This document shows, one piece after another, positions 44,343 to 50,957 of a stretch of 64,000 nt of DNA. The DNA is taken from assembly GCA_001512545.1 (NCBI GenBank), contig LFSI01000084.1:42522-106521 (forward strand). The letters are read 5' to 3'. Position numbers and translations under genes: made by a program. The notes under the pieces were generated by a model. That model searched no databases. It had not been told where the DNA came from and saw nothing but the letters and a program-made list of their open reading frames with translations. The stretch comes from Clostridia bacterium DTU065. Its GTDB lineage: Bacteria; Bacillota; DTU065. How positions within the stretch are numbered: position 1 is the stretch's first letter; each line of letters begins with the position of its first letter.

Positions 44343-44750
44343 ATGGAAAAGCTATTTGGTATCTTCGCGTTTATCATGCTGCTTTTTGTTTTTTCGGCTC
44401 TGACCATTACCACAGAATACCTCACGCCGTTTGGGACCGTGACTGTTTCCGTTTCTCCGACGGTCTTTGAGTGGACGGTGTCTGTAAACGCCGACGACTA
44501 CCGCACCGAAAGTTATTTTGAGGTGCACAGCCCAGGCTTCTATGTTCTCGTTACCGACGGACACGCACCGAAAGGTCAGTTTACCGTCCGCATACTGTCT
44601 TCCTCCAACCGCGTGGTTTATGAAGCTCAAGCCGCTCACGTGCATCCGCAAAACAAGATCTATCTAGAGCCCGGACGCTACCTGATCAGCGTCACCTCAA
44701 AAAACGCCAAACACACCAGCTACACCATCTACCTCACTGGTGCAGACTGA
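44343..44750 (+). CDS. Hypothetical exported/membrane-anchored protein (135 aa)
   Basis: The N-terminal hydrophobic helix is LFGIFAFIMLLFVFSALTI. The SD AAAGGAGTG precedes the start, and an extended -10 promoter (TTGTGGTATAAT, 44222-44235) lies upstream. A tandem terminator follows. Confidence 0.45.
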   Translation: MEKLFGIFAFIMLLFVFSALTITTEYLTPFGTVTVSVSPTVFEWTVSVNADDYRTESYFEVHSPGFYVLVTDGHAPKGQFTVRILSSSNRVVYEAQAAHVHPQNKIYLEPGRYLISVTSKNAKHTSYTIYLTGAD

Positions 44751-44763
44751 CCCAGACTCATAT

Positions 44764-44820
44764 GGGAGTGTTGCAAGACTACTACACAAGTAGTTTAGCA
44801 ACACTCCCTTTCTACTATCT
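44764..44820 (+). terminator. Long-stem terminator
   Basis: GGGAGTGTTGCAAGACTACT-ACACA-AGTAGTTTAGCAACACTCCC, then TTTCTACTATCT. Confidence 0.55.
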
Positions 44821-44832
44821 CGACAAAAAAGA

Positions 44833-44877
44833 GGCTGCTGTACAATCGGCTAGTTGTGCAGCAGCCCTTTCTGTTTG
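44833..44877 (+). repeat. Hairpin/terminator element, copy A (GGCTGCTGTACAA...TTGTGCAGCAGCC-CTTTCTGTTTG)
   Basis: A 13-bp stem plus a T-rich tail. A close relative sits at 47308-47357. Confidence 0.5.
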
Positions 44878-45129
44878 CACGCTTTGAGCCTTTAGGTACA
44901 GGTGCACGCACAACGCTTTTAAACTGAACTCTGTTATGACAAGAATGTACCATCTTCTTCTGCCTGCTGTCTTCCTAGTCTTTGCACGCCTGGAATATTA
45001 TTGAACCACGAAGACATACTATTGATTAGGGAAAAAGATAGTGGAGGTGCGTAAAATGGGAGATTCTCGCACAAATCTTGCTAGTACTTCAAAAAATGTT
45101 ACCATATAACTAACAAGGAGGCTGCTCTT

Positions 45130-46414
45130 ATGTTAATTGAGTACACGGTTAAGAACTTCAGATCTTTTAGGGATGAAGTTGTTCTTTCGATGGTTGCAGA
45201 TAAGAACAGGGAGTTAGCAGATACAAACACATTCCAAGTCGGAGACACGAACTTACTAAAGGTTGCTGCTCTGTACGGAAGCAACGCAAGCGGGAAATCG
45301 AATTTGATAGAGTCGTTTAGATTTTTCGGCTTTCTTTTTCGCCCTGGAGCAATTACTAAAAAAACCCTTTCCGATTTGCCGTATTTTAGGCTTAACGCAG
45401 AGGGTAAGGACAAACCCATATCGTACGAGATCTCGTTTTTTCTTAATGGTGTTCGTTACCGTTATGGCATTGAGGTCGACAGTGACGGCATATGTTCAGA
45501 ATGGTTGTATTTTGTTCCAAAGAGGCAAGAAGCATGCTACTTTGAAAGAGATCGAGACCAAATAACTCGCACCGGGACATACTTCAAAGACAAAAAAGCA
45601 TTGCAGTATATAAAACCCGATTCAACAAGACCGTTCTTGTTTACCCTCGCACAGGACTCTGTTAGGAAGTTCGATTGGGCAAAGAGTATTGTGGACTACT
45701 TCTGGTTCTACATCAGGTCAAGTGACATGCCAGAAACATTCTTCAAAAACATGATGGATGACGAGATTGCTTGCAAGTCTGATTCGGGCATCATCTCCAA
45801 GGACGAAGTAGTGTCTTATTTGAGATTGGCAGATTCCGGTATTACAGATGTTTCAGTAATAGAAAAAAACGCAGAAGATGACGAGCTTATCGAACAGCTA
45901 ACTGAGTTTGTGAAGCAACGAGGTGCAAAAATTGAGTTTGAGAGAGAGATGGGAGACGTTTTTCCATCATGCTAAATACGACAATGACAAGCTAGTTGGA
46001 GATGAGAAGTTCCCGTTGCGTGCAGAATCGAGGGGAACATTTAAATTATACTGTATGCTCTACCCGATACTCTGCGTGCTGAAAAAGGGTGGAGTTCTTT
46101 TGGTAGATGAAATTGAAAGTTCACTGCATCCGCTTTTGTGCGAGAAGATAGTACAGGTTTTTAACAGTTCAAAAACTAATCCACGTAACGCGCAATTGCT
46201 CTTCACCACTCACAACACTTTCCTGATGAATCGTCATCTATTGAGAAGAGACCAGATCTATTTCGTTGAGAAAGATGACTATGGAGCAAGCGATTTGTAC
46301 AGCTTATACGATGTTGACCTAGACATTCGCAGTAACTTCAACTATGAAGACAACTATCTTGCAGGGCGCTTCGGTGCTATACCGTATGTAAGCGATTTCT
46401 GTTCAACTAAATAA
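45130..46414 (+). pseudogene. AAA_21/ABC-type ATPase of an AbiL/RloA-like defence pair, split by a +1 frameshift
   Basis: ORF 45130-45975 carries Walker A (LYGSNASGKSNLIES). ORF 45923-46414, in the +1 frame, carries the signature-like SRGTFKL, Walker B (VLLVDEIESSLHP) and the H-loop (LFTTHN). The 53-nt overlap contains a GAGAGAGAGA tract at 45940-45949. Confidence 0.6.
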
Positions 46415-46431
46415 ATGGATGGGGGATTGCT

Positions 46432-47052
46432 TTGGCTAAAGGGCGCAGAACATCCAGTTATCGGAGAAGAAAAAGAGGCATCCGCCCCAATCCATTTTTC
46501 ATCATAGTCTGTGAAGGTGAAGTTACGGAACCTGATTACTTTAAGTCATTTCCATATTCATGCAAACTTGGTTATAGCTATGTTCATGGAACGGTCCACA
46601 TTGTCTCCGGGGCGGGGCAACATGAAAAAGTAGTTGTAAAGGCCGACGAGGTTTGGCGGAAACTCAAAAAGGAGTATGGGGCGATTAGTTCGAACGAAGT
46701 ATGGTGCGTTTTCGACTGTGACGGAAATACGGATAGCCTTAACCGAGCAATTAAAGCTGCAGAGTCTAAAGGCTTCAACGCAATTTACTCGATACAATGC
46801 TTTGAGTTATGGTTTTTATTGCATTTTCAACCACTCACAACGGCTATAGATAGAAAAGACTATGACAGACGACTGAGTAACCACTTGGGGATCAACTACG
46901 AACACGGAATGAAGGGGATGTACCATCTCTTGCAGAACCGTCAGGAAGATGCCATTAGAGCTGCCAAGCAGCTGTGGGAGCAGAAAGCAGAGCTTGGTGA
47001 ACTCACTGGTGATCCTATTACAAATGTGTTCATGCTTGTTGAGGCATTATGA
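46432..47052 (+). CDS. RloB-family (Toprim/OLD-like) protein, partner of the ATPase (AbiLii-like)
   Basis: The N-terminal FIIVCEGEVTEPDYFKSF is the RloB hallmark. A later VFDCDGNTD block is present. 206 aa, 17 nt after the ATPase stop. Confidence 0.7.
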   Translation: MAKGRRTSSYRRRKRGIRPNPFFIIVCEGEVTEPDYFKSFPYSCKLGYSYVHGTVHIVSGAGQHEKVVVKADEVWRKLKKEYGAISSNEVWCVFDCDGNTDSLNRAIKAAESKGFNAIYSIQCFELWFLLHFQPLTTAIDRKDYDRRLSNHLGINYEHGMKGMYHLLQNRQEDAIRAAKQLWEQKAELGELTGDPITNVFMLVEAL

Positions 47053-47262
47053 TGCTCATCGCAACCTTAAAAACAGAAGATGATTCGAATCGGTTCTTAA
47101 TCGGTTTTGGGTTGACAAGCGAGAGACTTTGTTAATTTGCTATGTTTTCAGCTCCAAAACACGCAGCCTAAGCAGAATTCTGGCATACCGCTGCTGTCTA
47201 GATCCTACCAAAGTCTTAGTAGAATGAAAAACGCTGTCTTAGTTTATTAACAAGCTTTTTTG

Positions 47263-47295
47263 CGACGAGCCTTCTTTGGCTCGTTTCTTTTTGTG
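47263..47295 (+). terminator. Terminator
   Basis: GACGAGCC-TTCTTTG-GCTCGT, followed by TTCTTTTTGT. Confidence 0.45.
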
Positions 47296-47307
47296 CTTAC
47301 AAACAAA

Positions 47308-47357
47308 GGCTGCTGCACAACTTGCTTGGGTGGCTAAATGTGCAACAGCCCTTTTGT
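47308..47357. repeat. Hairpin/terminator element, copy B (GGCTGCTGCACAA...ATGTGCAACAGCC-CTTTTGT)
   Basis: It matches the 44833-44877 element at 12 of 13 left-arm positions and 11 of 13 right-arm positions, with the same CCCTTT tail. The loops differ (8 versus 17 nt). It is T-rich on both strands. Confidence 0.5.
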
Positions 47358-47365
47358 AGTATATT

Positions 47366-47848
47366 TCACTGATCTTGTTTATTTACTTTGTAGATCAGCT
47401 GGATGTAATCACCAGGAAGAGTGTTCTTAGCAACAACCTCAATATCTCCCCCGTACGTCAAAGATGAAAGAGCTCTCAGGTCCTGGACTTCATCTGTCAG
47501 CTCTTTCATCTTTGCCCTGATACTAGCGACTTTAGTTACAAGATCAGCACCGGAGCCAAAAGCAAACTTATCGGTGCTTTTTGGTATATCTACCGAATAG
47601 GGTCCTTTCAAAACGTAAGTGTTGGCTATTCTGCGGCTCTCGGCTGGAATTCTTTCGATGAAACCCTGTTCAGTCAACACTTCAACTGCTTTAAACACGG
47701 CTCCTTTAGAAAGACCGCAAATCTCGGCCAGCTCGTCGTACTTGACCTGCAGCCGATCACTTCCTGTTTCCATGCACTTAAGAATGAATGCTCTTTTGAA
47801 CTGCTCTAGCGTTTGCTGCGATACGTTCTTGACCCATTCCTTAGACAC
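47366..47848 (-). CDS. Winged-helix DNA-binding protein (RepL/MarR-like HTH), function unknown
   Basis: 160 aa from a GTG start. FILKCMETGSDRLQVKYDELAEICGLSKGAVFKAVEVLTEQGFIERI is a wHTH. An AT-rich upstream region carries the GGTATCaaGATACC palindrome. Confidence 0.45.
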   Translation of the reverse strand: MSKEWVKNVSQQTLEQFKRAFILKCMETGSDRLQVKYDELAEICGLSKGAVFKAVEVLTEQGFIERIPAESRRIANTYVLKGPYSVDIPKSTDKFAFGSGADLVTKVASIRAKMKELTDEVQDLRALSSLTYGGDIEVVAKNTLPGDYIQLIYKVNKQDQ

Positions 47849-48074
47849 TTCAGTTCCCCATTCACCTCCTGGAAATAATCGGTATCAAGATACCAGCCTC
47901 AAGTCCTATTATAGCACATTTGTGCCTAAAAAACAGCCAATATACTCAAATTGATTACTATTTATTATTACATTATACAATTATCCAGAAGGTTATTTGG
48001 TTCAATTCAGGCATTAAAAACTTGTTGATCCATTGCGAAAAGCAGCTCACAGGCCATTGTCCCCAAGCTTGTTT

Positions 48075-50663: not shown

Positions 50664-50957
50664 ATGTACACCAATGCAGAAGAGATACTCCCTCGCGATC
50701 TGATCGAGCAGATTCAGCAGTACATTCAGGGACAAGAAATCTACATTCCCAAATGCGACGAAAAGAAGCTGGGCTGGGGTGAAAGAAACGGTGCCAAGGC
50801 GCTGATTCGGGAACGCAACCGAACCATCTGCAGGAAATATGAATGCGGAGCTTCCATCGACGAGCTGATGGCTGAGTTCCATCTGAGCTACGACAGCATC
50901 CGCAAGATCGTTAGGGGAAGCAGGAAAAAACAACTCAGAAGCAAGAAAGGCATCTAA
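50664..50957 (+). CDS. Small putative transcriptional regulator (Mor / CD3324-like family, tentative)
   Basis: 97 aa. ILPRDLIEQIQQYIQGQEIYIPK...RNRTICRKYECGASIDELMAEFHLSYDSIRKIV resembles the small Mor-like activator pattern as I recall it. Confidence 0.45.
   Translation: MYTNAEEILPRDLIEQIQQYIQGQEIYIPKCDEKKLGWGERNGAKALIRERNRTICRKYECGASIDELMAEFHLSYDSIRKIVRGSRKKQLRSKKGI

Follow-up and report, generated by a model that had tools for sequence, protein, structure and literature searches.

The ATPase gene of the AbiLi–RloB pair in the 64,000-nucleotide stretch of DNA analyzed here (referred to as the window) is broken by a frame shift sitting in a GA dinucleotide tract, and the locus, as judged from its sequence, appears to be an AbiL system with a null allele. 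We consider, with a probability of about 0.72, that this is a genuine slipped-strand null allele arisen at an incidental hotspot in a dispensable, acquired AbiL operon, and not an evolved contingency switch. The following features constitute the broken pair.

45130–45975, + strand: 5′ ORF of the broken AbiLi-type ABC ATPase gene, 281 aa, frame 1 (ORF list)
45923–46414, + strand: 3′ ORF of the same ATPase gene, 163 aa from a GTG start, frame 2 (ORF list)
45940–45949, + strand: (GA)5 tract GAGAGAGAGA, site of the frame break (sequence scan and alignment to intact alleles)
46432–47052, + strand: RloB/AbiLii partner gene, intact, 206 aa (Pfam RloB, 7.9e-42; PADLOC AbiLii, 1.7e-26)

The two ATPase ORFs, which overlap by 53 nt, match successive parts of the same profiles, Pfam AAA_21 being matched at positions 1–155 by the 5′ ORF (1.2e-18) and at positions 230–304 by the 3′ ORF (4.8e-19), and PADLOC AbiLi at positions 49–172 (7.6e-38) and 172–290 (9.6e-52), respectively; both ORFs are therefore consecutive halves of one gene. 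The intact conspecific allele matches the AbiLi profile at 1.1e-92. The Walker A motif (GSNASGKS, 45277–45300) lies within the 5′ ORF, and the 3′ ORF carries an ESRGT signature-like motif, the Walker B motif LLVDE (D/E at 46106–46111), and TTHN; Glu300, Ser301, Asp327, Glu328, and His334 are invariant columns in an alignment of 67 sequences. The 5′ ORF is 99% identical to the conspecific intact allele P0121, and its last seven codons (MGDVFPS C*) are out-of-frame read-through past the tract, the genuine coding part of the 3′ ORF beginning at a Trp codon (TGG, 45950–45952). The initial annotation had described one AbiLi/AAA_21 ATPase gene of a defence pair that is frame-broken within the GA tract, and its ORF coordinates, its 53-nt overlap, and the position of (GA)5 all hold.

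Relative to the intact allele, the window carries a 2-nt deletion, (GA)6 → (GA)5, by which the downstream part of the gene enters the +1 frame. When the window is aligned with intact conspecific alleles, the absence of a single GA unit is all that sets it apart within 45915–46223, which places the frame break in the tract itself and not elsewhere. In the intact allele, (GA)6 encodes Glu-Arg-Glu-Arg at residues 271–274 and is in frame, and (GA)5 and (GA)7 are out of frame, each in a different direction. When the gene was repaired with one extra GA and its product was used as the query, the search returned P0001, 99% identical, which across the junction reads ...IEFERERWETFF...; the intact conspecific P0121 reads ...IEFERERWETFF... 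without a break, exactly as (GA)6 predicts, which bears out the expectation that intact homologues are continuous through this point. The addition of one GA to the window gene restores a full ORF, one residue off the commonest allele, in support of the proposal that a defence gene has recently been inactivated here. The (GA)5 tract alone is statistically unremarkable (0.31 expected by chance per 64 kb; at least one in 20 of 100 shuffles), although it is the longest dinucleotide repeat in the 64-kb window, all others having at most four units.

The population from which the window comes was represented by 42 locus identifiers, corresponding to 41 distinct syntenic contigs (one contig was fetched twice), drawn from ENA, JGI, Logan, and NCBI MAG assemblies and all belonging to the uncultured Bacillota species of the window. 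These 41 loci are 99.7–99.9% identical to the window, share the gene order MutS-MiaB-FeoAB-DtxR-orf135-AbiLi-RloB-wHTH-DUF255, and display the length polymorphism of the GA tract that the initial annotation had anticipated among strains, with 5, 6, or 7 units: (GA)5 is carried by the window and by L011–L014, L029, L040–L042, and L053, (GA)6 by L001–L010 and L015–L018, and (GA)7 by L019–L028 and L043–L052. By exact look-up, the commonest form is the fully intact 428-aa protein P0121, encoded by the (GA)6 allele with an unaltered GGG run (G3; see below) and found in 135 collection blocks, on 94 contigs; a second variant that is likewise intact, P0125, occurs on 16 contigs. In the collection of 15 billion proteins, neither the in-frame proteins expected from (GA)3 and (GA)9 nor the ORF products predicted for (GA)2, (GA)4, and (GA)8 were found. 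An exact-pattern scan with the tract flanks and a variable gap gave no match in metagenome_contigs or genome_contigs, which are apparently without this species; the flank pattern does match the window and the fetched loci, and the population data come from exact-protein look-ups. One sample bears the label Foulum, presumably that of a biogas plant.

Contigs with zero SNPs over 4.3–4.7 kb nevertheless differ in tract length, namely L008 with (GA)6 versus L040 with (GA)5 and L017 with (GA)6 versus L027 with (GA)7, which makes the changes in the tract young in comparison with point mutations. A 7-kb alignment of 30 sequences contains only five indel events in total, all within 45090–46563, and two of them fall in the 12-nt tract, where slippage must have occurred at least twice, once as a contraction and once as an expansion. 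By a rough inference, the tract may mutate, per site, at least a few hundred times faster than substitution occurs, a lower bound that says little on the absolute rate. A candidate nonsense change (GAG → TAG) on (GA)6 in L020, L021, L025, and L028 was dropped, as these contigs align as (GA)7 alleles, and their G → T SNP at 45953 leaves the residue of the shifted frame unchanged. The use of SNP haplotypes as proof of recurrent slippage was also rejected, because ordinary SNPs only 110 bp apart show four-gamete violations, a second frameshift site in the gene reassorts (see below), and the consensus contigs, from Logan and from metagenomes, may be chimeric.

The GA tract is not the only site at which this gene is altered, and two further positions in its 5′ half vary within the species.

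45207–45209, + strand: GGG run in codons 26–27 (AGG GAG), kept in the window and reduced to GG in many conspecific contigs
45703, + strand: T for A, Arg192 → Trp, present only in the window and the JGI contig L053

The GGG → GG (G2) allele gives a product ending in ...DKNRS*, with the stop at codon 28, and is a second, independent null allele, for which gene callers start at Leu48 or Leu59 instead. It is widespread (L001–L011, L014, L019–L021, L024–L026, L028, L029, L040, and L043–L053). A site of this kind is not expected to be hypermutable. All six combinations of G2 or G3 with (GA)5, (GA)6, or (GA)7 occur, double-hit contigs being common, and reassortment of the G2/G3 site extends to all tract lengths and also to the rare Trp192 SNP (L053). 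Tract variants are found in about 5 of about 116 otherwise intact (G3) contigs versus about half of the G2 contigs, counts that do not represent independent samples; this skew suggests purifying selection for (GA)6 in the working gene and neutral drift once the gene is dead. Residue 192 is Lys or Arg in homologues, and its change to Trp could be a second hit gained after inactivation. Another variant, P0131, from a 12,957-nt JGI contig, is an otherwise intact protein of 428 aa with a Walker A Gly55 → Arg replacement (GSNASRKS), which is probably also a loss-of-function change. In L004, the RloB/AbiLii gene has a 1-nt deletion (window position 46563), by which the called product is cut to 163 aa. 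The only non-coding indel in the 7-kb alignment is found in L022, where the A6 run shortly before the ATPase start (window 45090–45095) is A7. An IS256-family transposase gene (Transposase_mut/MULE) lies at 1650–2878 of L041, between RloB and the MarR-like gene. The MiaB, FeoB, DtxR, orf135, wHTH, DUF255, and MFS genes are unbroken in every locus covering them.

The pair lies in a compositionally distinct segment, the other features of which are as follows.

44750–48050, strand not applicable: low-GC islet comprising the AbiLi–AbiLii operon and the MarR-like winged-helix gene (composition profile)
47366–47848, − strand: MarR-like winged-helix gene (Pfam MarR_2/HTH matches)
47264–47285, + strand: terminator-like hairpin with a T-run downstream of RloB (consensus scan)
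44833–44866, strand not given: similar terminator-like hairpin upstream of the operon (consensus scan)

The islet of 3.3 kb has a GC content of 0.41–0.44 versus 0.48–0.53 in its flanks and was probably acquired horizontally. Within it, the RloB gene starts 17 nt past the ATPase stop in the same orientation, and in the homologous loci L030–L039 an RloB match follows the ATPase in 10 of 10, being full-length in eight and partial in L035 and L037. The partial matches comprise 108 residues in L035 and 24 residues in L037 (Cohnella fermenti); the sequences suggest that these partners are truncated or degraded, i.e., in other taxa too. Homologous pairs in other genera (L030–L039) have no such MarR-like gene next to them. 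The terminator scan is weak, with three hairpins found versus 2.2 expected; no promoter was detected on scanning the region that precedes the operon, and an Rfam scan of the 64-kb window at gathering thresholds gave no RNA family (no rRNA, riboswitch, or other curated family). Both MutS and MutL are intact in the window. A small Mor-family gene (PF08765, Mu-like transcription activator) follows the DUF255 gene at about 50664–50957 (L001, 11363–11656) and may be the remains of a phage. The restriction-linked setting evoked in the initial annotation does not apply, since no restriction–modification gene adjoins the pair in the window.

The window operon is worth comparing with known two-gene defence systems. 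It resembles AbiL of Lactococcus lactis, for which PADLOC and DefenseFinder hold models, in that an AAA_21/AAA_15 ABC ATPase gene is followed by an RloB-family gene in a two-gene operon, and in the window an ABC ATPase matching the AbiLi profile indeed has its RloB-family partner directly downstream in the same orientation. In contrast to the lactococcal operon, which is on a plasmid, that of the window is chromosomal, within the low-GC islet of an uncultured anaerobic-digester Bacillota; furthermore, its ATPase gene is frameshifted, and its anti-phage role is predicted. Both lactococcal AbiL genes were reportedly required in the 1999 work of Deng et al., and in the window one of the two, the ATPase gene, is split by the (GA)5 frameshift. 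PARIS, composed of the ABC ATPase AriA and the TOPRIM nuclease AriB, shares the same ATPase superfamily (PADLOC AriA, 2.1e-40), whereas the partner there is a DUF4435 protein and here an RloB protein (PF13707). The likeness extends to the OLD-like ABC ATPase/TOPRIM class through a predicted Rad50/SMC-like head fold and, putatively, through a TOPRIM fold of the RloB partner, as taken from the literature (PMC11464382); AbiL has been grouped with PARIS among the ABC ATPase plus TOPRIM systems, and in PARIS the ATPase is needed for defence, the effector alone giving no defence and only mild toxicity (PMC11464382). From the analogy to PARIS we take only one point, namely that a system without its ATPase would be off.

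The repeat itself is confined to this lineage as far as it could be compared. A protein scan of genome_contigs yielded only homologues of 37–67% identity (Thermoclostridium, Acetivibrio, Cohnella, and others), and the nine closer ones (58–67%) are without the GA tract and without any repeat of more than three units anywhere in the gene. The AlphaFold model of the intact protein, made with the 67-sequence alignment (pLDDT 88.6, pTM 0.88), has a Rad50/SMC-type ABC ATPase head fold, for which Foldseek finds Rad50, SMC, PtuA, a retron ATPase, and OLD with a probability of 1.00. In the model, Glu-Arg-Glu-Arg 271–274 ends the coil of lowest confidence (264–274), between a helix (248–263) and a strand (275–285). 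Homologues differ in length at this loop, most of them being shorter, and have no repeat; therefore, the GA repeat looks like a lineage-specific expansion in a tolerant linker.

On these grounds, it is most likely that the window holds the OFF allele of a two-gene AbiL-type anti-phage operon, which would consist of the AbiLi ABC ATPase and the RloB/AbiLii protein as a putative TOPRIM effector, and that this allele originated by slipped-strand loss of one GA unit, (GA)6 → (GA)5. The residues encoded by the tract, Glu-Arg-Glu-Arg, sit in a surface loop of the ATPase that is flexible and varies in length, and the 2-nt deletion parts the Walker A motif from those of the signature, Walker B, and H-loop. 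With Walker A and Walker B on separate pieces, an ABC ATPase is unable to hydrolyse ATP, and because of this cut, and by analogy with PARIS, no functional ATPase would be producible from the window allele and the system should be inactive; the window strain should thus be AbiL-negative and, on the same analogy, not poisoned by RloB. Slippage in a short repeat is a textbook mechanism, and the polymorphism of 5, 6, and 7 units within the species is well documented here. The tract probably acts as a lineage-specific mutational hotspot; 5- and 7-unit forms segregate beside the commonest, intact (GA)6, and the window allele would be revertible by a single slippage event. The tract would be only one of several routes to a knock-out, others being the GGG → GG frameshift and the Walker A Gly → Arg replacement, and the outcome would be an incidental, hotspot-driven loss-of-function polymorphism with de facto ON/OFF variation. 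The tract variants do lie on several haplotype backgrounds, by contrast, which would fit recurrent, fast switching and counts against such an incidental origin.

The view that this variation has been selected as such, by which reversible, high-frequency slippage would set the AbiL ATPase ON at 6 units and OFF at 5 or 7, is in our judgement unlikely, and it is similarly doubtful that the population thereby hedges phage protection against the cost or self-toxicity of abortive infection. The initial annotation had raised a phase-variable switch of this kind, and the polymorphism in tract length that it predicts does exist: three lengths segregate, each of the two OFF lengths is present on backgrounds that otherwise match ON alleles in full, and unlike alleles are found in runs with near-consecutive accessions (ERR6170137 versus ERR6170120; SRR28714086 versus SRR28714610/612; ERZ27257473/57 versus ERZ27257421). 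The tract also shares with known phase variation by simple sequence repeats (SSRs) an intragenic dinucleotide repeat that moves the gene in and out of frame, with several lengths among close relatives. SSR switching of defence genes is well known for Type I/III restriction–modification systems, the genes of which carry repeats (PMC7383803), an (AG)12 repeat being present in the Type III mod gene of Mycoplasma mycoides (PMC3498834), and CT repeats are carried by oipA of H. pylori (PMC10564699). Those repeats, however, typically have 6 to more than 12 units, against 5–7 here. The ON length of 6 just reaches the PhasomeIt cut-off for dinucleotides of at least 6 units, the window having 5, and borderline tracts may mutate at <1e-5 (PMC6321876). 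Several features favour an incidental hotspot, although the GA tract is the longest dinucleotide repeat of the window: besides the shortness of the tract, the mismatch-repair genes are intact, the tract is missing from all nine closer homologues, and nowhere else in the 64-kb window does a dinucleotide repeat exceed 4 units or a G/C homopolymer reach 8. A frame-shifting repeat inside an ORF and length polymorphism among very close relatives, both expected of a contingency locus, are found here, whereas a repeat maintained by selection, i.e., conserved among orthologues or belonging to a genome-wide phasome, is not. Irreversible nulls, the G2 frameshift and Gly55 → Arg in Walker A, are also common, and the many contigs that are hit doubly, by G2 together with (GA)5 or (GA)7, resemble decay rather than switching; length variants are rare in otherwise intact genes relative to the G2 contigs. 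The argument from multiple backgrounds is weak because of the four gametes at 110 bp and the reassortment of G2/G3 with every tract length and with Trp192; recombination among co-resident strains or a chimeric metagenome consensus can explain such backgrounds. The literature searched contains no report of an SSR-controlled AbiL, the search being limited and no proof of absence. If the switch were real, it would be the first SSR-controlled defence system of the ABC-ATPase/TOPRIM (AbiL/PARIS) class, in a mismatch-repair-proficient Firmicute, and slippage among 5, 6, and 7 units would keep AbiL ON and OFF subpopulations in anaerobic-digester communities.

Two explanations that deny a true loss of function are far less probable. 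An error of sequencing or assembly in the source record, with the organism really having (GA)6, was among the readings of the initial annotation; dinucleotide tracts are error-prone on some platforms, and the exact 281-aa window product is present on one NCBI contig only, its look-up in the contig index yielding no record. However, (GA)5 recurs in at least nine other independent datasets (L011–L014, L029, L040–L042, and L053) produced with different assemblers, one of which, L053, shares the otherwise private Trp192 SNP of the window; moreover, the window has no private indels relative to its relatives over about 13 kb, and its other genes are uninterrupted, which makes such an error very improbable. 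It is barely conceivable that the (GA)5 allele is still expressed through +1 ribosomal frameshifting, transcriptional slippage, or reassembly of two half-proteins. The 53-nt overlap does hold the sequence GTT TTT CCA, on which tRNA-Phe could re-pair in the +1 frame, and GTG at 45923 and ATG at 46055 are candidate starts for the 3′ ORF; yet the overlap has no stimulatory element, being without a stop or rare codon and without a properly spaced Shine–Dalgarno sequence (a GAGG runs into the GTG itself), in most of the population the protein is encoded by an uninterrupted ORF, for which recoding is not needed, and the (GA)7 alleles shift in the opposite direction. We know of nothing on RNA polymerase slippage on (GA)5, and, to our knowledge, no ABC ATPase is known to tolerate a split of its head between the two Walker motifs. 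A slipped-strand null allele at an incidental hotspot thus remains our preferred reading.

For annotation, both ORFs are to be treated as one frameshifted AbiLi gene, and the strain is to be scored as AbiL-defective, one slippage event from repair. The locus provides a clean natural example of the loss, and possibly the regain, of a defence gene within one species: across dozens of public metagenomes, an intact allele occurs together with two nulls due to slippage, a frameshift of independent origin, and a missense variant in Walker A, with the neighbouring genes intact. It may therefore serve as a test case for whether defence genes are inactivated through neutral decay, because abortive infection is costly and selected against, or by stochastic switching.
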